A stretch of 32,000 bases of DNA from Methanosphaera stadtmanae DSM 3091 (GCF_000012545.1 NC_007681.1:540001-572000); one strand, 5' to 3'. Shown: positions 1 through 28,439, numbered from the stretch's first letter. The notes: generated by a model from the letters alone, not told the origin. A program made the numbers and translations.

Positions 1-260
1 TCAACCTTTCAAAACATTCATCCCATATAATAAAAACATGACTTCAAATTAACCACATATTTAGCATATAGTATCATAATAAACGACAAAGAGGGGAAAA
101 ATAGGTGAGAGAAAATGAACAATAAGATAATGATTATTGTATGATGTTATAAAAAATAGTAGTAAAAAGGGAAATGAAAATATAATGTAAAATGCCGAAT
201 TTTACATCACAACTTGAACAAAATTATAAAAGAAAGAAGATATTTAAATTAATTATTATA

Positions 261-1049
261 TTAATTTAAAATGTATGGATTATTTTTAGGATTAAAATAA
301 TCATTAATATTTATCCTAATCTTTTCTTTATATTCTATATTTAATTCATCACAACAATTTAAAATGGAATTTGAAATTTTATAATTATTATTAATTTTTC
401 CTAAATTTTCAAGCATTTTTTTATCTTTAGGATTTATTAATTTTAAAATTTCTTTATTCATATTTAATACTGCTCCAGTTCCATTTAATTGAAAATCATA
501 GTTTTTATTAAGTAACGTATCGTAATGAATAGGAATGAGTTCTTTTGAATTTGAAAAAATTTCATTATATCTTGTTTGGCTATTTTTTTCTATGCGTTCT
601 ACACTTGATTTTAATTTTTGATATTCTTCATAACAACTTTCTTCATCAAACTGACCATTTATATAAAATAGATTAATAACTGTTTGTAAATTATCTTTAA
701 TATTATTATTAATTAATTCTGTCTGGTCTATATTTGTGAATGGATGCATTAATTTGACTTCATCGTAAATATCATCTTTAATTAATGTTACATAATTATT
801 ATTAAATTTATATTTAAATAATTCCCGTTCAATAATCTGTTGTTCTTCATGATTGAGTATAATGTAACGATTATAAAATCTCATAAATAATCTTTCAAAG
901 TAAATTAAATATCTAACAATCTTTTTATTATAAAAACTTGAGATACAATATCCTATCCATGTTTCTATATTTTTTTCAATAGTTAAACCATCACTAGTTT
1001 TAATATCATTAAATGAGTTATTATCCAGTAATTGTATTAAAAATAACAA
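261..1049 (-). CDS. hypothetical protein, no domain recognised
   Basis: 262-codon ORF immediately downstream of, and co-oriented with, the DUF2971 gene. The listed start is a TTG. The frame stays stop-free upstream to about 1180 (43 more codons with no ATG or GTG), so the true 5' end is uncertain. Confidence 0.45.
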   Translation of the reverse strand: MLFLIQLLDNNSFNDIKTSDGLTIEKNIETWIGYCISSFYNKKIVRYLIYFERLFMRFYNRYIILNHEEQQIIERELFKYKFNNNYVTLIKDDIYDEVKLMHPFTNIDQTELINNNIKDNLQTVINLFYINGQFDEESCYEEYQKLKSSVERIEKNSQTRYNEIFSNSKELIPIHYDTLLNKNYDFQLNGTGAVLNMNKEILKLINPKDKKMLENLGKINNNYKISNSILNCCDELNIEYKEKIRININDYFNPKNNPYILN

Positions 1050-1176
1050 TACATTATTGTAATAAGGATATAAAACTGGTGAAATATTATTTTTAAATAA
1101 TAATTCATCTATGAAGAATTGTATCTCATTATTAGTAAGATTTTTAAATGAATCAATAATTCTTGAAAATCCTTTT

Positions 1177-2250
1177 TTAATATCCTATAGATCTCGAATA
1201 ATTAAAATAATTATTAATTAATGATTTACAAGCCTTATTTTTAATAGACTCTACAATAAATAATTCATCTTCCCAATTTTTTTCAGAATATTTTAAAATA
1301 ACATTTTCATAAATTTTAGCATTCCTACTATCTTTTTCCATTTGATAAAGTGAAATTTCTCTTTTTTTACAAATATCAAATATTTTTCGTTTGTTTTCAG
1401 TTGTGATTCTTTTTCCTAAATATATGGCAGAAGGTTTAGGTAATTTAAGAAAATATTTTTCACCAATTTTAATAGCACTTCTTAAAAGAAGTTCCTTATT
1501 AAATAAAATTCGCCACTCTTTTTCATGACTCCACACAGTTTCTTTTCTTAAAAATGGATCAAAAAGGAGTTTAAATGTATTTTCTTCCATATTTGATAAC
1601 TCATCAGTATACTCATAACCATCTTCGTATTTGATAGGAAAACATGAACGTATTATGAAATTTTTAAAATCTTTACTATTATACTTAATACAAATTCCTT
1701 TATTAGAATCAGAATAATAAGACCACATTAATATTATATCATGATTTTCAGAAAAACAAGTTAAATAAACAGTTTTTTTACTATGATTATTAAAATCATC
1801 ATAAATTCCATTCAAAATATCCAAAATCATTTTAGTATTGAATTCATTAAATTCTTCAAAGGGAATATCCTTATTAATTGTAGGTTCGGTTTCATAAATA
1901 TATTCCATTATTTCTAAATAAGGATTATTTGAATTAAGTATTCTTTCTTTTTCTTCAATACTCATTTTTGATCTTTCAAGAAAAGTAGTTATAATGTTAG
2001 GTTCAAGATTTTTATGAAAAACATTTTGAACATCAAAAAATAATTCACCCTCATATAAATCATTTAAATTATTCACATTAGACAAATATATTAAATCATT
2101 TTCTAATAAATCAAAAGTATACCCTTTATCATCAATAGATTTATATTTATAAAGAAAATTTGGTATATTCTTATTTTTTAATTCATGTGCTTTTTTTATA
2201 TTTTTAGTATCATTTGAATAAAATAATTCAAAAAAATCATCAGTCCACAT
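1177..2250 (-). CDS. DUF2971-family protein
   Basis: 357-aa ORF. It carries the pattern I associate with DUF2971: N-terminal 'FLYKYKS...LLENDLIYLSNVNNLNDLYEGE', central 'MWSYYSDSNKGICIKY' and 'HEKEWRIL'. Confidence 0.65.
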   Translation of the reverse strand: MWTDDFFELFYSNDTKNIKKAHELKNKNIPNFLYKYKSIDDKGYTFDLLENDLIYLSNVNNLNDLYEGELFFDVQNVFHKNLEPNIITTFLERSKMSIEEKERILNSNNPYLEIMEYIYETEPTINKDIPFEEFNEFNTKMILDILNGIYDDFNNHSKKTVYLTCFSENHDIILMWSYYSDSNKGICIKYNSKDFKNFIIRSCFPIKYEDGYEYTDELSNMEENTFKLLFDPFLRKETVWSHEKEWRILFNKELLLRSAIKIGEKYFLKLPKPSAIYLGKRITTENKRKIFDICKKREISLYQMEKDSRNAKIYENVILKYSEKNWEDELFIVESIKNKACKSLINNYFNYSRSIGY

Positions 2251-2493
2251 ATTATCATCTATATTTAAAAAAATTTTGTTAGTTATTATATAAAAAGGTG
2301 TATTATTACTATAAATAACAATTTAATCTATTAATATCGTATTTTTATAATTTATTTTCTAAATCAGTTAAATTTAAATAGATAATAGATAAAATAAAGA
2401 GGGGAAATTAATATTTTAAATATTATAAAATAGACACAAGTCTAACTATTTAATAAAATTTTTATTAATAAACATTTCTAAATTTTGTATATA

Positions 2494-5400
2494 TTAATAA
2501 TATTTATCTAAAAATCCTAGCCCTTCTTTTTTGATTTGTGAAAAAGGAATTATATCAATAGGATTTTTCTTTAAATAAATTATAGGTAACTCTTCAGATA
2601 CAATAAACATTGAAAATATTTTATAATTTTTTAAATTATTTCCTATTTTATCACCTAATTTATCGAAATTATTTTTTATCCAATCTTCTCTTCTTTGATG
2701 TTTTTTAATCCAGTTTTTATCATCAAAAAATCTTTCTATTTCATGTATAATCTCACGAGGATTTCGAGCACTTTCAATATTTTTACATTCAATTGAAAAT
2801 AATCGTTGTTTATCCTTATCTAATAATAAAATATCAATATCTCCATATTTCGGCTCAACTTTTACAATTTTATCTATTTGTACGTTAGATTCTAATTTAT
2901 AATTAAATTTTTTTGATAAATTGAGATTATCTGCAAACCATTTAAAAACGATTTCATTAAATTCTTTTCCTTTTTTATCAATCATTTTGCTAATTAAAGA
3001 AGTAAATTTTTTGGAAGAATTATTTGTTTTATAGACTCCTTTAGTAATTAAATTTATTAAATTTAAACCAGAATGATAAACATTTCTAAAACCATAAATA
3101 ACCGTTTCATTTTTGTCATTTTTAATAATTAATGGTTTTAGATAATAAGATAAAGACCTTCTAAAAACCCAGGGATAAATATCATTTTCAGAATAACCTT
3201 CCGGTGGTATCTCCCATCTATCACGATATTTTAATGAAAAATTATCTATTGCATATGAAGATTTATTATATTCCCAGTTTAATTCACATTTTAAATGATT
3301 TATTAAATTAGATTTTGAAATAAAAACAATATCTTCTTCATTTTTTTGAGCTAAACTTATCAAAGCATATACAAAATCAGCATATTCTGTTAAAGTTATA
3401 TCAAATTCTGATTTAAATGCTTCATCTAATTCATCACTTGGTTTTTCTTCAATATTACTTTTACTATCAATATTTGTAGAAAAATTATTTATATGTTCTA
3501 ATGATTTATTATTTCTAAAAGTATCAAAAATTTCTCCTAAATTAGTTTTTATACCAAAACGATTTGATTCTAAAGGCGTAATCTCAAAATCTATATAATC
3601 TGAATTTATATAATCGCTATTGAATGTCCATTCAATATAATTATAAGTTAAAGCCATTAAAGTATCAAAATTTTCATTTGATATTTTTACTTTACTATTA
3701 AAATTTTGTTCTGCAGACAATATTTCTATTAAAATTCTAGTACTTATTGATAGTTTATCCAACTCATAATCATCAGAAACAATGTCTTGTATAACACTAG
3801 AATTGTCTTTATTATTAAAATAATAATATAAATTATTAACTGAAGATATAGATCTATTAAATAAAATATTTTCATAATTTAAAATTAATTTTTTTATAAG
3901 ATTATCCCAATCATATTTCACTATCTCTTTTTTTATACATTCTATAAAATAATTTACAATTTGGTGACTTAATTCAACTGATTCTTTTTTAGTTAATTTT
4001 TGATTATAATCAAACTTGCATTGGATTTTTGTTACTAAGTCATTCATTAATAATTGTATATTATGTTCTTGCAATAATCTTATTGGAGTTTTTACAGGAA
4101 TATTATTAATATCTTCTAAATCATATATTAAAATATATTTTTTCAAACCCAAAGACAATTCTTTATGGATAATTTTAAGTATTCTTTCCGGTGTAAATTT
4201 ATTTTCTAAATTATTTTTTTCTAATAAAGTTCCAAATAATTTTAAAATTTCATTCATTAAAAGTAAATCTGCTTCATTATTTTTTTGATTTGAAATAATT
4301 ATTAAATTTTTACTTATTGTGAAATTAATTTCAAATTTGGACACATGACTAGAAATAATTATATTATCTTTCATTTGATTAGTTATTTCACTATTTAAAT
4401 CTAAATTATTCTCTTCAAGATTAAACGAAATAAAAATAGGTTTTTCTTTTAGTAGTTTTAAATCTTTATAAATTTCATCACCAAATTGGCAAAGCCAGAA
4501 ACAAATCGCTTTAGCTATATCAGATTCAAAATTATTTTCACATTTTACCCAAATATTTTGATTTATTATTTTCGTTAAAAATAAATTAGAATAAGCTATA
4601 TACACAAAATCATTAATTTTATTTACATTAATTAAATTATTTTCATATATTTCTAAATGTGAATCTTTATCTTTAATAGCTTTTATTCTTAATTTTTTAG
4701 TAAAATCTGCTGTAAAATCAAATGTTAATAAAGTGGAATCAATTTTTCTATCATCCATATAAAAAGAATGGTTATTATCAATATAAAAACTAAAGATATT
4801 TAAAAAACTGCATCCAAAAATATTACTATTTTTTAACAAATTTGCAAATTTATAAAGTATCAAACTATCATAATTTCCAGAATTAACTAATATCTCAAAT
4901 TCTTCAGTATTAATTATTAAATCATTTTCAGATATTTCTGTAACATACGATCTTCCAGACATACCGACAAATAAAATTATTAATAGATCCCCGTTTAAGA
5001 AATTAGATTTAGATAGATGTTTCTTAACTATTTTTATTCTATTTTTTATTATAAATTTATAATTTAAATCTATCCTTTCACAAGGCCCATTTTTATCATA
5101 ATCCTTTAAATTATCATTAATTAGAATACAATAAGTTAACTTATCAGTATCTATTTTAAAAATTTTATCTTTGAATATTGTATTTTCCCATTTAGGTAGT
5201 TCATAATTTAAATCTTCAAACTGTAATTTATTTTTTAAATTTAACAAAATATTTGACCATAAATAATTCTGATATTTTGATATAAAGTTCTTTTTTTCAT
5301 TATATTTAATTATATTTGATAAAATATTATGCCTAAGTGAAATAGTTAATAATTGGGGATAAATAAGATAAGTATCATCGATTTTTATTATAGGATAGGT

Positions 5401-6246
5401 GAATAAAGGATTTTTGTATATATTTTCTGAATACATTACCTCTTCAAGAGTTTTTTCATTAAAATTTTTATAAAAATCATTTTCATTAAAGATAATATTC
5501 ATAAAACATTTATCACCTATTTCAATAATAAAATCATCGCATATCATTTCTTTAATGTTGATTGAATTCTTAAAAACTTTTAATTTGTTAATATCAAATG
5601 TAACACATTTTTTTAGATTATTTAATTCATTAATATTAGGAAAAAGGATTTCTTCTCTAAATCTGTTATCAAAAACTTCATAACGTTCATGTCCTGATTT
5701 TTTAGCAATAAAATCACTTAAATATAAGATAAATTTTGAATTTTGATAAAAAAGTTCCATAAATTCATCAGAAAAACTAGAAGAATTATATTGAATACAA
5801 TTAATTATATTCTGTAATATATGATACTCAGTTGTAGATGGCCCTGAAAATATAATATTATTTTTATAGAATTCAATGTTGTTTGTAAATAAATTATCTA
5901 TAGGATCTTCTAACAAACCGATTGGCCCTTTTGAAGGAAGATATTTTAGAAATAATTCATTTAGTTCTTTTATTGAAATATCTCTGTTTCCACATTGAGT
6001 GTTTGAGCAGGCAATTTGTGTAGCTACTTCAAGTCGAACATATTGGGACTGATTTTCCGGACATAGGGATAATGCTACTAATGTTTTAATTAATTCTTTC
6101 TGATTATATTTAGAAAATTCTTCTCGTAACATTTTTAAAGCATTATTTGGAAGATTATTTAGATAATTATCTTTTTTTAAACAACATTTTTTATATTTTT
6201 TTCCACTACCACAGTAGCAAGGGTCATTTCTACCAATTTTCATCAT
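2494..6246 (-). CDS. large SEC-C-motif protein with C-terminal PD-(D/E)xK (NERD/restriction-endonuclease-like) signature
   Basis: Uninterrupted 1250-aa ORF. The N-terminus 'GRNDPCYCGSGKKYKKCC' is a SEC-C zinc motif. The C-terminal 'GDIDILLLD-x11-SIECKN' fits a D...ExK nuclease core. I saw no Walker A or NTPase motif. Confidence 0.75.
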   Translation of the reverse strand: MMKIGRNDPCYCGSGKKYKKCCLKKDNYLNNLPNNALKMLREEFSKYNQKELIKTLVALSLCPENQSQYVRLEVATQIACSNTQCGNRDISIKELNELFLKYLPSKGPIGLLEDPIDNLFTNNIEFYKNNIIFSGPSTTEYHILQNIINCIQYNSSSFSDEFMELFYQNSKFILYLSDFIAKKSGHERYEVFDNRFREEILFPNINELNNLKKCVTFDINKLKVFKNSINIKEMICDDFIIEIGDKCFMNIIFNENDFYKNFNEKTLEEVMYSENIYKNPLFTYPIIKIDDTYLIYPQLLTISLRHNILSNIIKYNEKKNFISKYQNYLWSNILLNLKNKLQFEDLNYELPKWENTIFKDKIFKIDTDKLTYCILINDNLKDYDKNGPCERIDLNYKFIIKNRIKIVKKHLSKSNFLNGDLLIILFVGMSGRSYVTEISENDLIINTEEFEILVNSGNYDSLILYKFANLLKNSNIFGCSFLNIFSFYIDNNHSFYMDDRKIDSTLLTFDFTADFTKKLRIKAIKDKDSHLEIYENNLINVNKINDFVYIAYSNLFLTKIINQNIWVKCENNFESDIAKAICFWLCQFGDEIYKDLKLLKEKPIFISFNLEENNLDLNSEITNQMKDNIIISSHVSKFEINFTISKNLIIISNQKNNEADLLLMNEILKLFGTLLEKNNLENKFTPERILKIIHKELSLGLKKYILIYDLEDINNIPVKTPIRLLQEHNIQLLMNDLVTKIQCKFDYNQKLTKKESVELSHQIVNYFIECIKKEIVKYDWDNLIKKLILNYENILFNRSISSVNNLYYYFNNKDNSSVIQDIVSDDYELDKLSISTRILIEILSAEQNFNSKVKISNENFDTLMALTYNYIEWTFNSDYINSDYIDFEITPLESNRFGIKTNLGEIFDTFRNNKSLEHINNFSTNIDSKSNIEEKPSDELDEAFKSEFDITLTEYADFVYALISLAQKNEEDIVFISKSNLINHLKCELNWEYNKSSYAIDNFSLKYRDRWEIPPEGYSENDIYPWVFRRSLSYYLKPLIIKNDKNETVIYGFRNVYHSGLNLINLITKGVYKTNNSSKKFTSLISKMIDKKGKEFNEIVFKWFADNLNLSKKFNYKLESNVQIDKIVKVEPKYGDIDILLLDKDKQRLFSIECKNIESARNPREIIHEIERFFDDKNWIKKHQRREDWIKNNFDKLGDKIGNNLKNYKIFSMFIVSEELPIIYLKKNPIDIIPFSQIKKEGLGFLDKYY

Positions 6247-6354
6247 ATCAACAACCTATTTTTTAAAGAAATGAAAACATTAATCAATAATAATTGATTA
6301 TATTAAAAATGTTTCTTTTATTATTTGTACTGAAAAAAATCAAATCATGATAAA

Positions 6355-6876
6355 TTATTTATTCAAAATTTCATCTTTCAACTTTTTAAAATCTTTATCA
6401 TTTATTACGGGTTTACCTTTTAGTTCAATTTCTTTATTAACATTAGCAAAAACCATACCTCTTGATCTACCACAATAAACTGGTTCATCCAATTCATACA
6501 CTCTAAGTAACCAGATATTAGCATTTTTAGTATTAAAGTATCCTGAAACGTGTTTTTTAGTCCATATATGATAATTATTAAACTTACCAATACGACTTAC
6601 AGGTGTTTCAAAGACATCTTCTACTGTAGCATAATATTTAACTTCATATGATTTATCTTCAACGTTTGGTAATGTATTTTTCTTAACAAAATCTTTTTCT
6701 GATTCCTTAAAAGAATCAAGATAATCCTCTTTGTTTGCATAACTAACCATGGGATAAAGTAGGAATTCTTTTAGCGTTGTACTGTTTTTTCTTATAAGTA
6801 TTGTTTGTTTTCCTTGTCCTAATGCTTCTACTGTAGCATTCCAATCATTAAGACATTTAGTAATTTTTACCATCAA
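6355..6876 (-). CDS. DUF1802-like / ASCH-PUA-like small protein
   Basis: 173-aa ORF 108 bp upstream of, and co-oriented with, the SEC-C gene. The N-terminal 'LNDWNATVEALGQGKQTILIRK' (G-x-K-x-T-x-x-x-R style beta-barrel opening) and the later 'IWLLRVYELDEPV' match my memory of DUF1802. The fold assignment is an inference. Confidence 0.55.
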   Translation of the reverse strand: MMVKITKCLNDWNATVEALGQGKQTILIRKNSTTLKEFLLYPMVSYANKEDYLDSFKESEKDFVKKNTLPNVEDKSYEVKYYATVEDVFETPVSRIGKFNNYHIWTKKHVSGYFNTKNANIWLLRVYELDEPVYCGRSRGMVFANVNKEIELKGKPVINDKDFKKLKDEILNK

Positions 6877-6962
6877 TATACACCTAATTAATAAATATGA
6901 TTTTATCTTATTAATCCCTTTTTACAACTATTTTTCCCTAAACACGGTTAATGTAAATATTC

Positions 6963-6975
6963 TATACACTGTATA
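6963..6975. promoter_or_regulatory. 13-bp perfect palindrome TATACA-C-TGTATA next to a TATA-like box, candidate operator
   Basis: Lies in the divergent intergenic region between the DUF1802-like gene and the RHH ORF. An 'atataaaat' TATA-like box follows at about 6981, roughly 45 bp upstream of the RHH ATG. Confidence 0.3.
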
Positions 6976-7027
6976 CAATTATATAAAATAAGAGATATAT
7001 GTAATAATTACGAAAGAAGTGATTTTT

Positions 7028-7180
7028 ATGAATAAAAGCACTACTATAAGAATTTCTATAGACAATAAAAAGAGATTAAATGAAATAGGTAACGTAAACG
7101 ATAGTTACAATAGTGTAATTTCGAAACTCTTAGACGAATATGATAAAAATAAAATATTACGGAAAAAAGGACAGTTATAA
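7028..7180 (+). CDS. small ribbon-helix-helix (CopG/Arc-like) putative transcriptional regulator
   Basis: 50-codon ORF not in the supplied track: MNKSTTIRISIDNKKRLNEIGNVNDSYNSVISKLLDEYDKNKILRKKGQL. It has a beta-strand ('TIRISID') then a two-helix pattern typical of RHH. It ends 14 nt before the helicase ATG. Confidence 0.5.
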   Translation: MNKSTTIRISIDNKKRLNEIGNVNDSYNSVISKLLDEYDKNKILRKKGQL

Positions 7181-7194
7181 TCTATGGTGATTAT

Positions 7195-10100
7195 ATGAAA
7201 CCTCCAAAATCGTTAAACAATAAAAATCAAGATACTGTTTTCAACGAATTAAATGAATACTTAACATTTAATTCTAGATTATCTGTTATAAGTGGTTCTT
7301 TCAGTATTTATGCATATAATAAATTAAAAAATAAGTTAAATGATATTGATAATATGCGTTTTATATTCACAGAACCATCTTTTATTAAAAACAAAGATAA
7401 CACAGAAACTCGTGAATATGAAATAAAAGATATTTCTAAAGATATTTTTGGAAACAAATATGAATTAAGACTAAAAAATGAAATGACACAAGGTGCAATC
7501 ACACGTGAATGTGCCGAATGGATAAAAGATAAAGTTGAAGTGAAAAGCTATATCAATTCTAATCCAGCGTATCCTAGAATGATACACTTAGGAAATAAAG
7601 AAGATGAAAAATGTATTAGTATTAATGGAACTGTTGATTTTACTAGTGATGGTCTAGGAATTACACCATCCAATAGACAAGACAATAATACATGTATGTA
7701 TGGTAAAACATGGACAGACAGCCAATTAATGATATTTGAACAACAATGGAACGATACCCAATTAGTAGAAGATGTTAAAGATGAATTTCTTAAGCATTTA
7801 CAGACCATGTATGCAGAAAATTCACCAGAATTCATATACTATTATAGCATGTACCATTTATTCAATGATTACTTACATAACACAGATAAAAATACATTAC
7901 CTAAGACAGAAACAGGGTTTAAAGAAACAAAAATATGGAATACTTTATATAAGTTTCAACAAGATGCAGTAATGGGTGCAATTGATAAAATTGAAAAATA
8001 TAATGGTTGTATAATTGCAGATAGTGTAGGATTAGGAAAAACATATACTGCCTTAGCCATTATGAAATATTATCAACTAAGAAACGATCGTATACTAGTG
8101 CTAGTTCCTAAAAAATTAAGAGACAACTGGACAGTATACATAAAAAATGATAACGTAATATTTTTTTAATGAAGACCGATTTAATTATGATGTGTTAAAT
8201 CATACAGACCTTAGCAGATACAAAGGAAAAAGTGGAGATATTGACCTAAAAACATTAAATTGGGGTAACTATGACTTAGTAGTAATTGATGAATCACACA
8301 ATTTCCGTAATAATCCACAATATAAAGATAAAACAACACGATATCAACGATTAATGAATGAAATTATAAAAAGTGGAGTAAAAACCAAAGTTCTCATGTT
8401 ATCAGCAACACCTGTAAACAACAAAATGACTGATATAAAAAATCAAATCGCACTTATCACAGAAGAACATGATGATGCCTTAACCCACATAGGAATTAAC
8501 AGCATAGATTCAACGCTTAGAACAGCACAAAAAGTATTCAATGAATGGAGTAAATTAGATGCAGAAGAACGAACTACTGAAAACTTCACAAACAAAGTAA
8601 ATACAGACTATTTCAAGCTATTAGATACACTCACTATAGCACGTAGCCGTAAACATATCTTAAAATATTATGATGATAAAGAAATAGGAACATTTCCAAC
8701 AAAACTAGAACCAGAAAATGTAAGATCAGAAATTGACATCAAAAATGAATTCCCTTCAATCAAAGAAATTGATGCTATAATCAATAACCTAAATTTAAGT
8801 GTATATTCACCAGTTAAATACATCCTACCAAACAAAATACAAGAATATACAGAAATACTTGACCAAGAAGTTAAAGGTGGAACTTCAACATTCACCCAAT
8901 TAGATCGTGACACGAATATTGTCCATCTTATGAGAACCAGTCTACTAAAACGTCTGGAAAGTTCAATATACTCATTCAAGAAAACTGTACAAAAAACGCT
9001 TAACAAAATAAACTACTGCTTAACGTTAACAACAAACAGTGTCAATTATGTTAGTGGAATTGATGAAGATTTGTTGGACTCTGAAGAAGAATATGAAGAA
9101 TATAGTTTTGGACAAAATAAAACAAAAACCATTAAATTACAAGATATGGATTTAATACGATGGAAAAAAGACCTAGAAACAGACAAACAACAACTAGAAG
9201 AATTATTAAAAGATGCAGAACAAATAACAGCCCAACGTGACCAAAAATTACACAACTTAAAACAAAAAATAGACGAGAAAATTAACAACCCCATAAACAA
9301 AGACAATAAGAAAATAATCATATTCACAACATACGCAAATACGGCAGAATACCTATATGACAACCTTCATAAAGAAATAAAAGAAAAATACAATCTAAAC
9401 ACAGCATTAGTAACAGGAGGACATAAAAATAAAACTACAATGAAAAAAGTATCTGCAAATGATATAAACGATGTACTATTAAATTTCTCACCAAAATCCA
9501 AAGAAAGAGAAAAAATAGAACCAGAAAAAACAGAAGAAATAGACATACTAATCGCTACTGACTGTATCAGTGAAGGGCAAAACTTACAAGACTGTGATTA
9601 CTTAATAAACTATGACATACATTGGAATCCTGTAAGAATCATACAAAGATTCGGAAGAATCGACCGTATAGGTTCAGCAAACAAAGAAATACAACTAGTA
9701 AACTTCTGGCCAGACTTAGAACTAGACGAATACATAGATTTAAAAGAAAGAGTAGAAAATCGTATGGTAATGGTAAACGTTTCAGCAACAGGAGACGAAA
9801 ACTTACTAGATAAAAACAAAAAACATGAACTAGAATACAGACGAAAACAACTACAACAACTACAAGACCAAGTAATAGAACTAGAAGACATAAGCGGTGG
9901 AATCTCAATAACAGACTTAACCTTCAACGACTTCAAAATAGAATTAATGGAATACAAAGACAAAAATGAAAAAGAACTAGAAAAAACACCAAACGGAACC
10001 TACTCTATTGTAAAAATACCGTCAGAACTAGAAAATGAACTACAAAAAGGAGTGATATTCCTACTAAAAGAAACAAAAACAACAAACCAAGAAAACCCAT

Positions 10101-10435
10101 TAAGCCCATACTATTTAACATACATCACAGAAGACAAAACAGTAGAATACAATTACACGCAATCTAAAAAAATAATGGACTACTATAAAAAACTATGCTC
10201 AGGTAAAACAGAAGTATATCAGGACCTAGTACAAATATTCAACAAAGAAACCAGAAATGGTATAAAAATGGATAAATATTCAGAACTATTACGACTAGCC
10301 ATAGAAAATACGCAAGGAAAAACAGAAGAAGTAGGAGTAAAAAGCCTATTCAGAAGAGGACCAACAACGCGCACAAAAAAAGATATTAATGGATTAGAAA
10401 ATTATGAATTAATAACATTCTTAATATTGATGTGA
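7195..10435 (+). pseudogene. SNF2-family helicase with N-terminal degenerate PLD-like domain, split into two ORFs (7195-8169 and 8159/8192-10435) by a frameshift in a T7 run
   Basis: GGTGAT RBS before ATG 7195. Motif I 'ADSVGLGKTYTALA' lies in ORF 1. Motif II 'VVIDESHNFRN', 'LMLSATPVNN' and 'SEGQNLQDCDYLINYDIHWNPVRIIQRFGRIDRIGS' lie in ORF 2. Removing one T from T7 (8161-8167) fuses the frames as ...NDNVIFFNEDRFNYDVLNHTDLS... The N-terminal 'IHLGNKEDEKCISINGTVDFTSDGLG' resembles an HKD/PLD motif with K replaced by G. Confidence 0.8.
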
Positions 10436-11184
10436 TATCTATGGATCTATACAAAGATTTGCTGAATTATCCTGATGAATGTCTAGATAATCGGAAAATT
10501 CATAAAACATTAATTTATGAAAATGGTGATTTGAAAACAAGAGATAAAAAAATAATAGAACAAAATATAGAACTAATAACATGGAAATACGCATTCACAA
10601 AAGAAGATCTTAACATACCTTTCTATGTTGATGAAATACGAGAATACTTAGAAGTCGAAATTGTGGAAATACAATTAAGAAAAAAACAAAAAATAAAGAG
10701 AATAGCAGATATCCTCTTTAGAACAATGCCACACCCCTCTTTACTATTCTTCAGATATAAAAATGAAGTAAATATTTATGCTGCACATGTAAAAAAACAC
10801 GGCTCAGATTACTCAATATTTACATATGAAGAAGAAATGATAAAAACAGGATGGATAAATTTTAATCAGATAAATAAAAAAACAGAAAAACTAATGAATG
10901 ATTTAAAACTAGAAAATCTGAACAATATGAACTTTTATACATTATACAATGACGTGTATAATGCATTAATAAACTATAGATCTTACATCTTAAAAAATGA
11001 AAAAACTGGAACGTTCATAGATGAAAAAAAGAAAATTTTGAAAGAAATAGATGAAATAGAGAATAATATTAAAGAATTAAAAACCCAAATCAAAAAAGAT
11101 ATTAATTTCAATGAAGTAGTGGAATTAAATATACAAATTAATGAATATGAAAAAGAAAAAGTAGAATTAATCAATAGATTATAG
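10432..11184 (+). CDS. DUF4391-like protein
   Basis: 250-aa ORF. Its GTG overlaps the helicase stop (ATGTGA); an alternative ATG is at 10441. The N-terminal 'NRKIHKTLIYENGDL...IELITWKYAFTKEDLNIP' matches my recollection of DUF4391. Its position between a helicase and a methyltransferase is the usual DUF4391 context. Confidence 0.5.
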   Translation: MISMDLYKDLLNYPDECLDNRKIHKTLIYENGDLKTRDKKIIEQNIELITWKYAFTKEDLNIPFYVDEIREYLEVEIVEIQLRKKQKIKRIADILFRTMPHPSLLFFRYKNEVNIYAAHVKKHGSDYSIFTYEEEMIKTGWINFNQINKKTEKLMNDLKLENLNNMNFYTLYNDVYNALINYRSYILKNEKTGTFIDEKKKILKEIDEIENNIKELKTQIKKDINFNEVVELNIQINEYEKEKVELINRL

Positions 11185-11193
11185 GTGACTATT

Positions 11194-12338
11194 ATGGAAA
11201 TCACGAAATTAAATTTAGAATCAGAAGATATTGTCCAAAACAATATAGAACAATTAAAGCAATTATTCCCTGAAATTGTTACTGAAGGTAAAATAGATTT
11301 TTATAAACTTAAAGAGGTTTTAGGTGATGAAATAGATGATGAAGATGAAAAATATGAATTTACATGGAATGGTAAACATGATGCTATTAGAGAGTTTCAA
11401 AAACCATCACATTGTACTTTAAGACCAGACAAAAATAATAGTAAAAATTGGAATACCACTGAAAATTTATATATAGAAGGTGATAATTTAGAAGTTTTAA
11501 AATTACTTCAAAAATCTTATCAAAGTAAAATTAAAATGATGTACATTGATCCTCCTTATAATACAGGTAATGACTCTTTTATATACAAAGATAATTTTCA
11601 AGAAAATGAAACTGAATATATAGAGAAAGAAGAAGAAAGAGGAAAATTTCAATCTAATCCCAATAGTTCTGGACGATACCATACAAACTGGATGAATATG
11701 ATTTATCCATTACTTCGATTAGCAAGAAACTTATTATCAGAAGAGGGCGTATTATTAATAAGTATTGATGATAATGAATTTTCTAATTTAATTGTCATGT
11801 GTAAAGAAATATTTGGTGAAGAAAATATAGATAACTTAATCTGGCAAAAAGTTGATAACGATTCTGGAAAAATGAAAATAACATATAGGGTACGATTAGA
11901 ACATGAATACGTGTTAATTTGTTATAAAAATAAAAATAAAACATACTTTAATAAATTTATCGAAGAAAGAAATTATAAAAATGAGTATGATAATCCTGAT
12001 AACGATCCTAGAGGACCATACAAACAAGCAATTATTTCATCAACAGAAGAAAAATCCAATAAAGATAGTCCTAATTATTATTCAATCACCACACCTTCCG
12101 GAAAAATATTTACCAGACAATGGAGAGTAAGTGAAGAAGAAATGTTAGAATTAATAGGAGAAGATAGGATTTATTTTGGGAAAAATGGAGATTCTGTACC
12201 TTCACTTAAAGCTTTTATTAATGAACCAAAATTATCAACACCTACCACTATATTAAGTGGTGTTGGAACTGCAAAAACTGCTGGAAAAGATATTGAAAAT
12301 ATGTTAGGTTCAAGAAAAATATTTTCTTATCCTAAACC
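11194..12338 (+). pseudogene. mod: Type III-like (beta-class) N6-adenine DNA methyltransferase Mod, 5' fragment truncated by an IS insertion
   Basis: RBS 'taggtga' before ATG 11194. Motifs seen: 'FTWNGK', 'LYIEGDNLEVLKLL', motif IV 'MYIDPPYNTGND', and 'FSYPKP' at the break point. The ORF-track tail WLSSCWVLKKF* (12339-12375) is read-through into the IS inverted repeat. Confidence 0.9.
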
Positions 12339-13867
12339 GTGGCTTTCCAGTTGCTGGGTCTTGAAAAAGTTTTGATCAAAAAAAATTTGAAAATTTATTT
12401 GAAGATGTAAAAATTTATTTCTTATCTTAATTTTTATTAAAATAAGAAAATAACGTTACACTTGAAATACACGACTCATCAAAATTCAACAAAAACTTTA
12501 ATATAAAAAATAAGAATAATAAACTATTTATTATAGAAAAGGAATAGATATTAATATGAAAACCCAAATATCTAATTCCTTAAAGGATAATATGTCCTCA
12601 ATACAACTTAAACTTAACGATTTTGGTCTCAAAGATCCAATTAAAAAAAATACTGAAGAACTCTTTAAAACTAAAAATACAAGACCTATCAACCAAGAAT
12701 ATGTTTATTTAAATGATAATCACTTTGAATATGATAACCCCACCTGTTCACATTGTCACAAAAAACACGAAAAACATAAAGTTATTAAAAAAGGATTCCG
12801 AACAAGAAAAGTCAGAACAACAAATAAAACCAAAATAACAATATTTTTAAGACGTTATCAATGTAAAACATGTGGAAAAAAATTCCAAACAGAATTATCA
12901 TGGCTATATGATAAAAATAAAAGATACACTAAACAATTTTTTGAATTGATAGATAAAATAATGGAATTTAGAAATATACCATTATCTCTACTACAACATA
13001 TAATAAACGTAGTTCTAAATACTAATATAAATCTTCAAACACTTGAATTTTGGATAAAAATAAAAAATAAATTCTCTAGAAACAAAGAATACTTAAAAAT
13101 AGAACTAATTAAAGATAAAAACATGATAATCAATCATAACATCATTGGATCAGGAATTTATAACTACGACGAACAATACATTAAAATCAACGGAAAAAAA
13201 TACTATCGATTAACACTATACGACTACTCCAAAGACCAACCAATCGCAGAACAAATCATAAAGAAAGAATGGAATAAAAAATCACTCTCAAGCAAAACAA
13301 TAGAAGAATTCATAAAAACAGCAACAAAAGAACGACCATTCAAAGCACTAATAACAGACGGAAAAAAACAATACAACGAAATAGCAAAAAAACTACGTGT
13401 ACAACACCAAACATGTATATTCCACGCAATAAAATACATAAAGGACGAAACAAAAAAATACTTAAGATCAAAAACACTATCAACATTAGATAAAATTACA
13501 ATTGCAAACCAAACATCACAAATATGCCAAATATATAGAGAATTAAGTATTTATGATACATACAAAACACTAAATGAACTAAAAGACATAGAAAACCAAC
13601 TATTAAAACCAATCAAAAAAATACTAAACACCACAGTAGAAAACAACATAAACAAAATAATAACACACCACTTATACTCTGAAATACCAAGAACAAACAA
13701 CGCAGTAGAACAATACTACAGAAACTCTTTACCAAAATCAAAGAAAAACAAAAAAAGAACCATTGACGGCGTACTAACAACAATAGCAACTGAAATGATG
13801 AAAAAATTTAAAAATACAAAAGAAAAATAAATATTCAAAAATCAAGACCCGACAACTGGAAAGCCAC
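12339..13867 (+). mobile_element. 1529-bp insertion sequence (ISM1-like?) with 26-bp imperfect terminal inverted repeats and an 8-bp target-site duplication
   Basis: IRL is 12339-12364, GTGGCTTTCCAGTTGCTGGGTCTTGA. The reverse complement of IRR (13842-13867) is GTGGCTTTCCAGTTGTCGGGTCTTGA, giving 24/26 identity. It is flanked by direct repeats CCTAAACC at 12331-12338 and 13868-13875. Deleting 12339-13875 restores an in-frame mod: ...FSYPKPKELIKHLINMVTD... Confidence 0.9.
12556..13830 (+). CDS. IS transposase (DDE type with N-terminal CxxC...CxxC zinc finger)
   Basis: 424-aa ORF filling the IS. Zinc finger: 'CSHCHKK...CKTCGKKF'. Candidate DDE residues lie in 'YNYDEQYIKING', 'ALITDGKKQY' and 'NNAVEQYYRN'. 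Confidence 0.85.
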   Translation: MKTQISNSLKDNMSSIQLKLNDFGLKDPIKKNTEELFKTKNTRPINQEYVYLNDNHFEYDNPTCSHCHKKHEKHKVIKKGFRTRKVRTTNKTKITIFLRRYQCKTCGKKFQTELSWLYDKNKRYTKQFFELIDKIMEFRNIPLSLLQHIINVVLNTNINLQTLEFWIKIKNKFSRNKEYLKIELIKDKNMIINHNIIGSGIYNYDEQYIKINGKKYYRLTLYDYSKDQPIAEQIIKKEWNKKSLSSKTIEEFIKTATKERPFKALITDGKKQYNEIAKKLRVQHQTCIFHAIKYIKDETKKYLRSKTLSTLDKITIANQTSQICQIYRELSIYDTYKTLNELKDIENQLLKPIKKILNTTVENNINKIITHHLYSEIPRTNNAVEQYYRNSLPKSKKNKKRTIDGVLTTIATEMMKKFKNTKEK

Positions 13868-13875
13868 CCTAAACC

Positions 13876-14671
13876 AAAAGAATTAATTAAACATTTAATT
13901 AACATGGTTACGGATACTAATTATTCACTAAATCCAAATTATCCAAAATCTAGAAAAATTTTTTATCCTGGAGTAAAAATGTCAACTTCAAAACCAGAAC
14001 AAAATATAATATTAGATTTCTTTTCAGGTTCTGCAACAACAGCAGAAGCTGTGATGGATTTAAATCTTCAAAATAATTTAAATAATAAATTTATCATGAT
14101 TCAATATCGTGAAAAAACAGATGAAAAATCTGAAGCCTACAAACAAGGTTATAATACAATTTGTGAAATAGGTGAAGAACGTATACGTCGAGCTGGTGAT
14201 AAATTGTTAGATGAACATCCAGATAGTAATATAGATATTGGTTTTAAAGTTCTGAAATTAGACACCTCAAATTTTAAAGAATGGGATCCTAGTGATAGTC
14301 CTTTAGAAGAATATCTTGATGATAGTGTGATTAATGTAAAAGAAGATAGAACTGATTTAGATTTTATTTATGAAATCATGATAAAATATGGAATTGAATT
14401 AACATCACCTATAGAAGAAATTAAAAAATCTAATTATACATTCTATTCTGTTGGTTATGGAGCATTAATAGTTTGTTTAGATGATAAAGTAAATGAAGAC
14501 GTAACTGAGGAAATAATTGAAATAATAAATGAAATAGAAATAGTCGATGAAAATAAGAAACACAAGAATAGGGTTGTATTTAAAGATATTAGTTTCTTAG
14601 ATGATTCTGTAAAAACTAACATTATCCAAGTACTAGAAAACAACAACATTGAAGACTTTATTACTTATTAA
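13876..14671 (+). pseudogene. mod: Mod methyltransferase, 3' fragment (SAM-binding motif I region)
   Basis: This frame is continuous with the right TSD copy (CCT AAA CCA AAA GAA...). It contains 'ILDFFSGSATTAEAVMDLN' (motif I, FxGxG-like) and 'ICEIGEERIRRAG'. Motif order IV then I across the two fragments indicates a beta-class permuted MTase. Confidence 0.9.
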
Positions 14672-14685
14672 GTTGGTGATTGTTC

Positions 14686-17673
14686 ATGGAATTAAATTTT
14701 GAATCAAATTTGGAATACCAACAAGATGCTATTGGTTCTATTGTAGATTTGTTTAATGGCCAAGCTTCTGATAATTCCCCTTTTCAACTTGGTGGTTTTT
14801 ATAGAACAACTACTTTAGATGATTATGGTAAAACAGCCAGTAATATTGGTATTGGAAATCGTCTTGATTTACGTGAGGACATAATATTAGAAAATATTAG
14901 AAAGGTACAATTAAAAAATGAAATTACTCCTACAGACAACATTAACAAAAGTAAATTAAAATTTACTGTTGAAATGGAAACAGGAACTGGTAAAACTTAC
15001 GTTTATCTTAGAAGTATTTTTGAATTAAATAAAAATTATGGTTTCACTAAGTTTATTATAGTTGTTCCTAGTCTTGCTATCAAAGAAGGAGTTAAAAAAA
15101 CATTAGATATAACACGAAACCACTTCAAAGGATTATATGATAATCCAATTTATAATTATTTTGTTTATAATAGCAGTAGATTAAATGATATTCATAATTT
15201 TGTTGTGGATAACAATATTAATATTATGATTATTAATATAGATTCATTTAATAAGGATTTAAACTTAATAAATCAACCACAAGATACATTACAGGGTAAC
15301 CGCCCGATTGATTTAATTGCTCAAACAAATCCATTTATTATTATTGATGAACCTCAATCTATCACTGCTAAAAAAGATGGTAAAGGTGAACAAGCTATCG
15401 AAAGATTAAATCCTTTATGTACAGTGAGTTTTTCAGCAACCCCTCCAGACAATAGTGAAAACTATATTTATAAATTAAATGCTGTGGATGCATATAATAA
15501 AAAATTAGTTAAACAGATAGAAGTTGATTCTATTTTATCACATAATGATCATAATTCTCCATATATGAAACTAGTTGAAGTTAAAGCTAAACCTTATAGT
15601 GCTAAAATTGAAATAGATGCTAATGTTAAAGGTGTAACTAAAAGAAAAACTGTGAAAGTCAAAAATAAAACTGATTTATCTGATTTATCTAAACGTGAAA
15701 TTTATACGGGATATATTGTTGATAATATCATTTGTTCTGAAGGCAGAGAATCTGTAGAATTTACTAATGGAGAACGAATTAAATTAAATCTTGCTGTTGG
15801 AGAAACTAATGAAAAACTTATTAAGCGAGAATTAATTCATTACACAATTAAAGAACATTTAGATAAAGAGTTACGCCTTCTTAAAAAAGGTATTAAAGTT
15901 TTATCATTATTCTTTATTGATAAAGTAGCAAATTATAGAATCTACGATAAAGAAGGAAATCCAAATTTAGGAGATTACGCTGTCATATTTGAAGAAGAAT
16001 ATAAGAAACTAATTAAAGAAGATAAATACAAATCACTCATGGAATACAATAATATCAATGTAGATATTAGTCAAGTTCATAACGGTTATTTTGCTCAAGA
16101 TAAAAAAGGTTTTAAAGATACAAATGGTAAAGGAAAACTAGACAATGATGCTTATAATCTTATAATGAAAGATAAAGAAAGATTATTAAATATGAAAACT
16201 CCTTTAAGATTTATTTTCTCTCATTCTGCTTTACGAGAAGGATGGGATAATCCTAATGTGTTCCAAATATGTACTCTTAATGAAACTAGGTCAAAAATGA
16301 AAAAACGACAAGAAATTGGTCGTGGTTTAAGATTATGTGTAGATCAAGATGGAAATAGAATTAAAAATAATCCGAATATTAATATTTTAACTGTTATGGC
16401 TAATGAAAGTTATGATCAATTTGCTGAAGGATTACAAAAAGAAATTGAAGAAGATACTGGAATTAAATTTAATAGAATAACTGACACATCATTTAGTTTC
16501 ACAAAATATACTAATAGAAAAGGTGATGAAGAAGAGTTAGGTGATCAGAAATCAAAATTAATCTATAAATATCTTGAAGCGAATGGTTATATTAAAAAAG
16601 ATGGTAAGATATTACCTCAACTTGAAATTGATATTGAGAAGGGTGAATTTAAATTAGCTCCAATAGTAGAAGATATTGCCAGTGATAAAGAAGAATTACG
16701 TAATAATATAATAAATGAAATTCGCACATTAACTGCACCTCCAATAGTTAAAAAACGTGGTGATAGAAAAACTATAAAACTAGATTATGACAAGTATAAA
16801 AAAGAAGATTTCTATAAAATATGGAATAAAATTAAACATAAATCCATGTATAAAGTACAATTTGACACGGAACGATTAATTGAAGAATGTTCTAAACGTT
16901 TGCATGAAGAATTAAACATTGGTAATCCTACGGTAATATTTACTAAAGCAGGTTATAAAATTGAATATAGTGGTATTGAACCACAAGAGGAAATTTGGGA
17001 TGTGATTGAATCACAGGGAGATAGTGTAGATTTACCAAACATATTACAATATTTACAAAATGAAACTACACTTACTAGAAAAACGCTTGCCCGAATTTTA
17101 ATTCAAAGTGAAACTTTAAATCAATTTAAGAAAAATCCTGAAGAATATAAAGAACAAACTCTTCTAATAATCAAAGAGGAATTAAGAAGATTCTTAGTAG
17201 ATGGAATTGCATATACCAAAATTGAAGATTGCTATGATGAAGATGAATTTGAAAGACATGAACTTTTCCGTTATGTTAATGAACTAGGAGAAGATGATAA
17301 ATCAGAAAGAAGTTATAAATCTCCTTATGAATACACTATATTTGATTCAGGTATTGAAAAATCATTCCAAGAAAAACTTGAATTCAGTAATTTAATTAAA
17401 TTTTATATGAAGTTACCAGGATGGTTTGAAATAGATACTCCTATAGGTAAATATAATCCAGACTGGGCAATATTAGTAGAAAGAGAAGGTAAAGAAGAGT
17501 TATATTTCATTGTTGAAACAAAAGGAACGAGTAATATTAAAGAACTAAAACCATCCGAACAATACAAAATTAAATGTGGAATAGAACATTTCAAAGCATT
17601 AGATGAAAGTATACAATTTGAAGTTGAAAGTGATTTTGAAGAATTTAAAATGGACACAATAAGTAAATATTAA
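14686..17673 (+). CDS. res: Type III restriction enzyme Res subunit (SF2 helicase plus C-terminal PD-(D/E)xK nuclease), apparently intact
   Basis: GGTGA RBS before ATG 14686; the track start at 14680 is a TTG. Motifs seen: 'METGTGKTYVY', 'FIIIDEPQS', 'SFSATP', 'SALREGWDNPNVFQICTL', 'QEIGRGLRL'. The C-terminal 'YNPDWAILVE...YFIVETKG' is the nuclease core. Confidence 0.9.
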   Translation: MELNFESNLEYQQDAIGSIVDLFNGQASDNSPFQLGGFYRTTTLDDYGKTASNIGIGNRLDLREDIILENIRKVQLKNEITPTDNINKSKLKFTVEMETGTGKTYVYLRSIFELNKNYGFTKFIIVVPSLAIKEGVKKTLDITRNHFKGLYDNPIYNYFVYNSSRLNDIHNFVVDNNINIMIINIDSFNKDLNLINQPQDTLQGNRPIDLIAQTNPFIIIDEPQSITAKKDGKGEQAIERLNPLCTVSFSATPPDNSENYIYKLNAVDAYNKKLVKQIEVDSILSHNDHNSPYMKLVEVKAKPYSAKIEIDANVKGVTKRKTVKVKNKTDLSDLSKREIYTGYIVDNIICSEGRESVEFTNGERIKLNLAVGETNEKLIKRELIHYTIKEHLDKELRLLKKGIKVLSLFFIDKVANYRIYDKEGNPNLGDYAVIFEEEYKKLIKEDKYKSLMEYNNINVDISQVHNGYFAQDKKGFKDTNGKGKLDNDAYNLIMKDKERLLNMKTPLRFIFSHSALREGWDNPNVFQICTLNETRSKMKKRQEIGRGLRLCVDQDGNRIKNNPNINILTVMANESYDQFAEGLQKEIEEDTGIKFNRITDTSFSFTKYTNRKGDEEELGDQKSKLIYKYLEANGYIKKDGKILPQLEIDIEKGEFKLAPIVEDIASDKEELRNNIINEIRTLTAPPIVKKRGDRKTIKLDYDKYKKEDFYKIWNKIKHKSMYKVQFDTERLIEECSKRLHEELNIGNPTVIFTKAGYKIEYSGIEPQEEIWDVIESQGDSVDLPNILQYLQNETTLTRKTLARILIQSETLNQFKKNPEEYKEQTLLIIKEELRRFLVDGIAYTKIEDCYDEDEFERHELFRYVNELGEDDKSERSYKSPYEYTIFDSGIEKSFQEKLEFSNLIKFYMKLPGWFEIDTPIGKYNPDWAILVEREGKEELYFIVETKGTSNIKELKPSEQYKIKCGIEHFKALDESIQFEVESDFEEFKMDTISKY

Positions 17674-17687
17674 TGGAGGTTCTATAT

Positions 17688-17963
17688 ATGACAACAAAAG
17701 ATAGTTCATCAAATAATCAGTCAAATAATAGTTCTAATAATAGTTCTAATAATAGTTCTAATAATAGTTCTAATAATAGTTCTAATAATAGTTCTAATAA
17801 TAGTTCTAATAATAGTTCTAATAATAGTTCTAATAATAGTTCTAATAATAGTTCTAATAATAGTTCTAATAATAGTTCTAATAATAGTTCTAATAATAAC
17901 AATTCTGGTTGGACTAGCAATAATAGAAGAAACACAGTAACTAAATCAAACGGCGAAAAATAA
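17688..17963 (+). CDS. small Asn/Ser-repeat protein (91 aa), function unknown
   Basis: A strong GGAGG (17675-17679) sits 8 nt before ATG 17688 and overlaps the res stop. The product is MTTKDSSSNNQS-(NNSS)x14-NNNNSGWTSNNRRNTVTKSNGEK. The RBS supports coding status, but the extreme low complexity keeps it uncertain. Confidence 0.45.
   Translation: MTTKDSSSNNQSNNSSNNSSNNSSNNSSNNSSNNSSNNSSNNSSNNSSNNSSNNSSNNSSNNSSNNSSNNNNSGWTSNNRRNTVTKSNGEK
17724..17891 (+). repeat. perfect tandem repeat, 14 copies of the 12-bp unit AATAATAGTTCT
   Basis: Read directly from the sequence: 168 bp with no mismatch, and in frame (NNSS per unit). Confidence 0.95.
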
Positions 17964-25573: not shown

Positions 25574-25600
25574 TTTATATGAAATTACACATAATACTTT

Positions 25601-26643: not shown

Positions 26644-26647
26644 AAGT

Positions 26648-28428: not shown

Positions 28429-28439
28429 TTCCTGACTAT
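27862..28439 (-). repeat. IR1 right copy
   Basis: Reverse complement equals 24417-24994 exactly. Confidence 0.95.

Follow-up and report, generated by a model that had tools for sequence, protein, structure and literature searches.

An archaeal Upx homologue and an ASCH-fold DUF1802 protein are probably chance neighbours in a Methanosphaera stadtmanae defence island

Do two adjacent genes in a defence island of Methanosphaera stadtmanae DSM 3091, a human-gut methanogen, act as one antiviral system, or do they only share an address? The stretch in question is a 32,000-nt window of this genome, in which all coordinates are counted from the first letter, and the genes are a large and a small one on its minus strand. 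An earlier note on this DNA had described them as co-oriented, 108 bp apart and divergent from an operon for a ribbon-helix-helix (RHH) protein and a helicase, a layout that our open reading frame (ORF) calls confirm. It had also proposed that they form a two-gene defence module, an ATP-independent nuclease pair that senses modified nucleic acid. We find that the large gene encodes a homologue of the anti-phage protein Upx and the small one a DUF1802 protein with an ASCH-like fold. The locus is probably made up of two independent defence cassettes that lie side by side in the M. stadtmanae defence island by chance. The features on which this argument turns are as follows (HMM, hidden Markov model; AF2, AlphaFold2).

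2494..6246, minus strand: Upx-like single-protein defence nuclease, 1250 aa, of a SEC-C-bearing clade (HMM, phmmer, and AF2/Foldseek match to 9wuf)
6178..6231, minus strand: SEC-C zinc-binding motif, residues 6-23 of the Upx-like protein (Pfam PF02810, E 3.1e-8)
2782..2841, minus strand: PD-(D/E)xK catalytic core, D1136/D1138...E1153-x-K1155 (alignment to SeUpx; invariance in alignments A1 and A6)
6247..6354, minus strand: 108-bp spacer from the DUF1802 stop codon to the Upx ATG (sequence and pattern scan)
6355..6873, minus strand: DUF1802 protein, 172 aa, ASCH/PUA-like beta-barrel (PF08819, E 1.8e-27; AF2 and Foldseek; gene neighbourhoods)

The ORF of the small gene spans 6355..6876 on the minus strand. 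Its likeliest start is the ATG at 6873, which has AGGTG 8 nt upstream and gives a protein of 172 aa, the same length as in all homologues.

The earlier note did not recognise the pair as any named system. The large protein nevertheless belongs to one: it is an archaeal homologue, over its full length, of the single-gene anti-phage system Upx. It is matched by the PADLOC Upx model (E 5.8e-35) and by NCBIfam NF042954, 'anti-phage protein Upx' (E 7.9e-42), in the latter case with 142.6 bits against an equivalog cut-off of 1900 bits, which makes it a family member but no equivalog of SeUpx and places it in a distant Upx clade. For P0001, a protein of identical sequence, the precomputed Pfam annotation includes PF28173, 'Upx-like'. 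The protein collection yielded 73 significant homologues over the full length; PF28173 is annotated on all of them and PF02810 on all but one. When phmmer was run against the Protein Data Bank (PDB) sequences, it returned 9wuf_A (E 1.2e-17) with an alignment that places GDIDILLLD..SIECKN over GDIDLLAW..VIECKD of SeUpx, nuclease motif residue for residue. An AF2 model of residues 51-1250, built from a 38-sequence alignment, reached a mean predicted local distance difference test score (pLDDT) of 87.4 and a predicted template modelling score (pTM) of 0.85. Foldseek matched this model to 9wuf, 'Cryo-EM structure of Upx', at E 1.4e-42 over 1290 columns with 16% identity and a template modelling (TM) score of 0.73 in both directions; the next-best match had an E-value of only 0.016. 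Because the structural match runs over the full length, the roughly 1000 middle residues that had seemed to match nothing can be assigned to the N-terminal and middle (sensor) domains of Upx.

Other parts of the earlier description of this protein hold. The N-terminal SEC-C motif is recovered by Pfam, a pattern scan of all 1250 residues found neither a Walker A nor a Walker B motif, in keeping with the stated lack of an NTPase, and the C-terminal D...ExK core 'GDIDILLLD...SIECKN' occupies residues 1135-1156. D1136, D1138, E1153 and K1155 are invariant in alignments of 17 and 38 sequences that reach down to homologues of 17% identity. Within the SEC-C motif, C10 is invariant among homologues, and C12 and C21 nearly so. 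The motif did not align to SeUpx 9wuf in the phmmer comparison, and it therefore appears to be specific to the clade of the M. stadtmanae protein.

Gao et al. are said to have described Upx in 2020 as a single-gene anti-phage system. SeUpx is a monomeric, Mg-dependent nuclease with the C-terminal core D1161/E1176/K1178, and it too constitutes a single-gene system (PMC13099982). Three divergent homologues, SeUpx, HpUpx and PbUpx, each defend alone and are set off by the ATPase domain found in the large terminases of diverse phages; the E1176A mutation abolishes defence (PMC13601566). The same study finds Upx spread over bacterial and archaeal phyla and reports Avs1 or a second Upx as its sole associations (PMC13601566). 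The M. stadtmanae protein resembles these proteins (SeUpx 9wuf; NF042954; PADLOC PDLC02221; PF28173) in its length of about 1250 aa, its three-domain fold, the position of its C-terminal D...ExK triad, its lack of an NTPase and its occurrence as a stand-alone gene in defence islands. It differs in being just 16% identical to SeUpx, in bearing the SEC-C motif, and in its methanogen host, in which the trigger would need to be a protein of an archaeal tailed virus. Its family, fold and catalytic residues are established, and its trigger and activity may be those of its homologues. By analogy with them, a viral protein would dock onto the N-terminal and middle domains, the likeliest candidate being the large terminase of an archaeal tailed virus, bound through its ATPase domain, and this binding would license the C-terminal Mg-dependent PD-(D/E)xK nuclease (D1136/E1153/K1155) without ATP. 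The nuclease would then degrade nucleic acid and halt the infection or the cell, with the SEC-C knuckle as a probable clade-specific add-on. In itself, the large gene is thus ordinary: another member of the Upx family.

A two-gene module calls for homologues of the two genes to be linked in other genomes as well, as the earlier note recognised. We looked for such linkage from both sides. On the Upx side, we inspected the neighbourhoods within 5-6 kb of Upx-like genes from six independent lineages, whose proteins range in identity to the M. stadtmanae protein from 66% (P0009) and 62% (P0028) through 38% (P0040), 29% (P0043) and 27% (P0055) to 22% (P0065). None of the six (0/6) has a DUF1802 gene within that distance. 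Their neighbours are instead unrelated (among them provirus genes, OLD/DUF2971, a UvrD-DEAD giant helicase, a TIR/SLFN/AbiV/DRT island and an IS110 element), and no obligate partner gene is conserved across the six. In the Methanobrevibacter case, P0040 (L091-L093), the Upx-like gene directly follows genes for a Mu F-like head protein and an S78 prohead protease, so that a provirus may carry it at its edge. Loci L011-L090, which hold generic SEC-C proteins, were left aside.

On the DUF1802 side, we applied our own ORF calls and HMMs to 80 metagenomic loci (48-91% identity), the loci from earlier DUF1802 look-ups and the window, which dereplicated at 85% identity into 20 informative lineages. 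An intact Upx gene lies beside DUF1802 in one of the 20, that of M. stadtmanae itself. Among the 80 metagenomic loci, the only trace of Upx is a convergent 69-aa C-terminal relic in L120. The linkage is thus unconserved from either side, and the claim of a two-gene module largely falls with it.

The local sequence tells the same story. Homology between loci in blastn ends at the ORF borders and delimits a DUF1802 cassette (6352-6893) and a Upx cassette (2487-6258); the latter recurs in L200-L204 without DUF1802, and the 108-bp spacer is shared with neither cassette in other loci. Their base compositions also differ: Upx has a GC content of 20.8% and the DUF2971 gene that follows it one of 19-21%, as against 27.4% for DUF1802 and 27-31% for SNF2. 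On contig L002, Upx has decayed to fragments and DUF1802 is intact. Within the spacer there is a T7 run at 6333-6339, 16 nt past the DUF1802 stop codon, and a TATA-like TTTTAATATAA at about 6298-6308, 60 nt ahead of the Upx ATG. Judged by these motifs, the spacer probably holds a terminator and a separate promoter, consistent with separate archaeal transcription units. We conclude that the two genes are probably functionally independent.

What, then, is the DUF1802 protein? It is a full-length member of its family (Pfam PF08819, E 1.8e-27). An AF2 model from a 30-sequence alignment (pLDDT 94.7, pTM 0.90) found nine ASCH proteins, TTHA0113 among them, as its nine best PDB matches (E 5e-6 to 5e-4, probability 1.0). 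The best was ZmASCH (5y6c/5guq; Foldseek E 5e-6, probability 1.0, TM 0.48-0.57), and next in the ranking came TRIP4 ASCH-dsDNA complexes and the N4-acetylcytidine (ac4C) amidohydrolase YqfB. Matches in the viral structure library BFVD likewise include annotated ASCH-domain proteins. The ASCH signature is GxKxxExR, and a conserved DUF1802 strand, G21-K-Q-T-I-L-I-R28, resembles it with a Leu at the Glu position. The Pfam ASCH model did not match the small protein, for which PF08819 alone was reported at E <= 0.01. Going by the model, then, DUF1802 belongs to the ASCH/PUA-like superfamily at the level of fold and not of family, in line with the barrel that had been predicted from its opening residues. 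It shares with ZmASCH (5guq/5y6c), TTHA0113 (2dp9), the TRIP4 ASCH-dsDNA complex (8yfj) and YqfB (9kyf) the PUA-like beta-barrel of a nucleic-acid-binding family and an N-terminal G-K-x-T-x-x-x-R strand like the signature. It differs from them as a separate family with extra helices, with TM scores of only about 0.5-0.6, and with a gene context of restriction-modification (RM), bacteriophage exclusion (BREX) and type IV systems, not RNA metabolism.

The family is small and patchy (177 clusters at 50% identity). DUF1802 is 99% identical within the species M. stadtmanae and about 65% identical across genera, with conserved polar and aromatic residues at E10, W11, Q23, R28, Y40, T42, W104, H108, Y112 and R124. 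Sequence and profile searches of the PDB gave no match to DUF1802, a tblastn search of plasmids with a bacterial member returned none, none was found in IMG/VR viral contigs, and no PADLOC model matches the family.

It is in its neighbourhoods that DUF1802 is most telling. We clustered the neighbouring proteins, scanned the cluster representatives against Pfam and built a gene map for each locus, in a sample that is almost entirely Methanobacteriales as a consequence of a narrow search alignment (A4). An RM or BREX component lies no more than two genes from DUF1802 in 17/20 lineages, compared with 0/6 Upx lineages (Fisher p = 4e-4, with a small control set). Such components adjoin DUF1802 in, for example, L102-L105, L125, L128, L139, L144-L156, L159, L163 and L176. 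The recurrent BREX neighbours are BrxA, BrxB, BrxC, a PglX-type methyltransferase, PglZ and BrxL. The RM neighbours are HsdR and HsdM, an N6_N4 Mod with Res, and a phospholipase D (PLD)-SNF2 helicase with a PglX-like methyltransferase and DUF4391. Nucleases also recur, namely GmrSD, Mrr, and a tetratricopeptide repeat (TPR)-PD-(D/E)xK protein with DUF6508.

The arrangements themselves vary. In one Methanobrevibacter-like lineage, DUF1802 is embedded in a BREX operon in the order BrxC, DUF1802, PglZ, BrxL with gaps of 0-10 nt; in other lineages it is divergent from brxA, and in a further arrangement from hsdM. It is also the last gene, at the 3' end, of a Type I operon in Methanobacterium and of Type III-like operons, and in several lineages the gene directly after it is GmrSD or Mrr. 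In addition, DUF1802 is fused to Mrr_cat, to an HsdR-N-type nuclease domain (HSDR_N), to a McrB-like AAA_5 domain, to DUF6398 or to a second DUF1802 (P0224, P0272, P0246, P0284, P0214 and P0197). About ten DUF1802 representatives (P0221, P0242, P0258, P0281, P0293, P0295, P0300, P0304, P0335 and P0244) have in common a C-terminal domain of some 130 aa, marked by E..D..FEV[QH], conserved H, E and D residues, and KLKHAxDxW. This domain had no Pfam or PDB match, and our guess is that it is a divergent restriction-endonuclease fold of the PD-(D/E)xK kind.

A second small protein often accompanies DUF1802. DUF365 (137 aa; range 135-151) is encoded directly upstream in 16 loci with gaps of -4 to +13 nt (including L146, L151, L154, L159, L161, L162, L164, L165, L171, L176, L177, L179 and L184); the window has no such gene. 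DUF365 has a PDB homologue in 2kku/AF2351 (E 2e-18), a structure that the DUF1802 model also matches weakly (Foldseek rank 27). Since 2kku resembles both, DUF365 and DUF1802 may be a pair of related small barrels.

Several further loci drew our attention. Downstream of DUF1802 in L152, L163-L165, L171 and L173 lie a TPR protein with a PD-(D/E)xK (NucS_C/YhcG-like) nuclease and then DUF6508, which might be another sensor-nuclease module. These TPR-nuclease proteins, which reach 1250 aa, were considered as Upx candidates and rejected because none matched the Upx HMM, and the idea that small genes downstream of DUF1802 in relatives are hidden DUF1802 paralogues was likewise dismissed for want of an HMM signal. 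A wastewater lineage with 26-28% identity to the DUF1802 of the window (L195-L197) encodes tandem DUF1802 proteins of 199 and 190 aa followed by an 861-aa AAA_13/SMC-like ATPase; one source labels a close relative, P0346, a 'restriction system protein'.

In the window, DUF1802 faces a methylation-based system on the plus strand, and the surroundings of the two genes are as follows.

6874..7027, no strand assigned: divergent intergenic region from DUF1802 to the RHH gene (blastn; conserved with both genes in a second lineage)
7028..7180, plus strand: RHH-type small protein of 50 aa, first gene of the divergent operon (ORF and translation; putative RHH label from the earlier note)
7195-8169 and 8192-10435, plus strand: PLD-SNF2 helicase, split ORFs (Pfam, PADLOC)
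10432-11184, plus strand: DUF4391 (Pfam, PADLOC)
11185-12375 and 13904-14671, plus strand: Mod methyltransferase, interrupted by an insertion sequence (IS) (Pfam, PADLOC)
14680-17673, plus strand: Res (Pfam, PADLOC)
7195..17673, plus strand: the whole PLD-SNF2/DUF4391/Mod/Res system, methylation-based and faced by DUF1802 (intact versions in L001-L010)
261..2250, minus strand: DUF2971 gene, PADLOC PDC-S31 candidate defence gene 3' of Upx, split into 357 and 262 aa (PDC-S31, 1.1e-40)

Together with a Type I RM system, these genes bear out the defence-island setting that had been proposed. The window's PLD-SNF2/DUF4391/Mod system recurs beside DUF365-DUF1802 in L146 and L187. The divergent unit of RHH gene and DUF1802, with the intergenic region between them (blastn 7153-6352), recurs in L106-L109 and L117 with a nucleotide sequence that is 77% identical; there the RHH gene heads a Type I RM operon and not the SNF2 system. 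The small protein at the head of that operon is clearly similar to the 50-aa RHH protein (by eye, most aligned residues are identical). As the unit precedes the SNF2 system in one case and the Type I operon in the other, it has been kept in front of two different RM systems. In the window, DUF1802 would most likely go with the divergent RHH-SNF2-DUF4391-Mod-Res system, not with Upx.

In strain DSM 3091 that system is damaged, with an IS in Mod and a split SNF2 gene. Positions 1-12338 and 13868-17778 of the window are 99.4-99.9% identical to ten metagenomic or genomic contigs (99.9% for nine), each of which bears a DUF1802 protein named for M. stadtmanae. The IS at 12339-13867 (transposase ORF 12556-13830) breaks the Mod gene of the Type III-like system; none of the ten contigs has it, and in these an undivided Mod gene encodes 647 aa. 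The PLD-SNF2 helicase gene is broken at a T7 homopolymer (8160-8195), and in related contigs it is either intact (1080 aa in L007) or split at other points, which could reflect phase variation, decay or assembly error at homopolymers. The DUF2971/PDC-S31 gene is a single ORF of 663 aa in L001 and L003-L010. Farther along, at 24356-28439, two hsdS genes in opposite orientation carry a perfect 581-nt inverted repeat (24417-24997 and 27859-28439). Between them lie an ORF pair (25601-25978 and 25978-26643) that by eye resembles a split site-specific recombinase, and a partial hsdS (26762-27250). The arrangement looks like a phase-variable shufflon of Type I specificity.

Known defence accessories offer some guidance to what DUF1802 might do. 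BapA is an ASCH-fold glucosyl-5-hydroxymethylcytosine (5hmC) hydrolase that de-glucosylates phage DNA for the neighbouring Brig3 glycosylase (PMC13160076). The likeness is that an ASCH-type protein is encoded beside a defence effector in a defence island, and that it acts on modified phage-DNA bases and so widens the range of its neighbour. BapA differs in exceeding 250 aa and having two barrels, against the 172 aa of DUF1802; by conjecture, DUF365 plus DUF1802 might be an analogue of the two BapA barrels. In type IV enzymes, PUA-superfamily domains are known sensors (PMC12191111). DUF1802 resembles the combinations of EVE, SRA, YTH or ASCH with Mrr, McrB or GmrSD in its fusions to Mrr_cat, the HsdR-N-type nuclease and the McrB-like AAA_5 domain, and in its place directly upstream of GmrSD and Mrr genes; it differs in that the DUF1802 of the window stands alone and that its neighbour, Upx, is neither a type IV enzyme nor a conserved partner. 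BREX loci, too, can have embedded accessory genes, such as BrxU/GmrSD. The positions of DUF1802 between brxC and pglZ in one lineage and divergent from brxA in others are reminiscent of these; in the window, by contrast, the neighbour is a Type III-like RM system with an SNF2 helicase, not BREX, and we know of no description of DUF1802 as a BREX component.

How do the possible explanations compare? In the reading that we prefer, DUF1802 is an ASCH-fold, probably nucleic-acid-binding module with BREX, Type I, Type III-like, PLD-SNF2-plus-methyltransferase and type IV partners. It would recognise or chemically strip a modified DNA base, and would thereby extend or gate the restriction of viruses with modified genomes. 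Our confidence in any specific mechanism for DUF1802 is low. Going further, it is tentatively possible that this module, by reading a DNA base modification or taking it off, serves BREX, Type I and Type III RM systems and type IV nucleases alike as an exchangeable accessory, either fused to them or, in methanogens, free-standing and often with DUF365; it might also feed Upx in M. stadtmanae. A doubtful alternative is that DUF1802 works on its own, as a one-gene hydrolase or glycosylase that attacks modified bases of viral DNA like the BapA and Brig enzymes; it would be found in RM and BREX islands only because these gather complementary defences, and would cooperate with neither neighbour. The many monocistronic occurrences with convergent downstream genes fit this idea, as do the conserved polar and aromatic residues, the presence of the ASCH enzymes YqfB and ZmASCH (an RNase) among the Foldseek matches, and the precedent of BapA (PMC13160076). 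The way in which it is embedded in BREX operons or terminates Type I and Type III operons suggests functional coupling, however; a sensor is the role suggested by its fusions with nuclease and McrB modules, and no catalytic activity is known for the family. It would be most surprising if DUF1802 were a housekeeping ASCH protein, for example of RNA metabolism, that happens to flank a hotspot of defence integration and has uninformative neighbours. ASCH proteins are classically tied to RNA metabolism (ZmASCH and TRIP4 are among the matches), and DUF1802 is more conserved than the cargo around it. Yet both of its flanks vary between lineages, with homology that stops at the ORF borders, and two copies occur within 8 kb in L157 and as two Methanobacterium paralogues, possibly of the same genome. 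Its occurrence inside BREX operons, its fusions to restriction modules and the patchiness of the small family speak against a housekeeping role as well.

This leaves the possibility that DUF1802 and Upx are, after all, one ATP-independent two-gene system, in which modified viral DNA is detected by the ASCH protein, which guides the nuclease or switches it on. We regard this as very unlikely. The co-orientation and 108-bp distance, the adjacency in all sampled M. stadtmanae contigs, the ASCH fold, the nucleases that are fused to DUF1802 or follow it elsewhere (Mrr_cat, HSDR_N, GmrSD, Mrr) and the known PUA-superfamily sensors of type IV enzymes (PMC12191111) are all compatible with it. The model is nevertheless largely refuted by the lack of conserved linkage, with 6/6 Upx lineages lacking DUF1802 and 19/20 DUF1802 lineages lacking an intact Upx. 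It must also contend with the differing cassette borders and GC content, with contig L002, where Upx has decayed and DUF1802 has not, with the terminator-like and promoter-like signals between the genes, and with characterised Upx proteins that are single-gene and terminase-sensing (PMC13601566). What survives of the modification-sensing nuclease pair is the SEC-C motif, the nuclease core, the absence of an NTPase, the ASCH/PUA-like fold and the defence-island context; the pairing does not, and published Upx is triggered by terminase. That DUF1802 senses modification is plausible, and this would apply to its RM, BREX and type IV neighbours and to its fusions, not to Upx.

A number of observations weigh against the reading that we prefer, of two independent cassettes with DUF1802 as an accessory of methylation-based systems. 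The two genes are adjacent in all ten other M. stadtmanae loci, both being intact in nine and Upx decayed in L002, although the ten amount to one lineage at 99.9% identity. A nuclease gene often follows DUF1802 (GmrSD, Mrr, TPR-PD-(D/E)xK or PLD-SNF2), and a loose logic of a reader plus any nuclease, which would cover Upx in M. stadtmanae, is conceivable. The neighbourhood sample comes nearly all from Methanobacteriales, and the control comprises only six Upx lineages. As for Upx itself, the NCBIfam score of 142 bits lies far under the equivalog cut-off of 1900 bits, terminase sensing by the M. stadtmanae protein would be an extrapolation across 16% sequence identity, and the published accounts of Upx conflict, with gp16 named as trigger in one paper and terminase in the other, and with two views of how the protein acts (PMC13601566, PMC13099982).

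A literature search for DUF1802 and PF08819 found no description of a defence role or of an association with RM or BREX. The association, seen in genomic context within one archaeal order, is apparently unreported, and it, rather than the Upx gene, is the lead worth following. For the Upx family, our analysis documents a SEC-C-bearing clade in human-gut methanogens; for the reading of defence islands, it is a caution that adjacent genes need not be operons. To our knowledge, the effector mechanism of BREX is still unresolved. DUF1802 is a concrete candidate for a modified-DNA sensor or de-modifying accessory of methylation-based immunity, BREX included, and, if this is true, it would offer a handle on how BREX-like methylation systems deal with modified or unmodified viral DNA.

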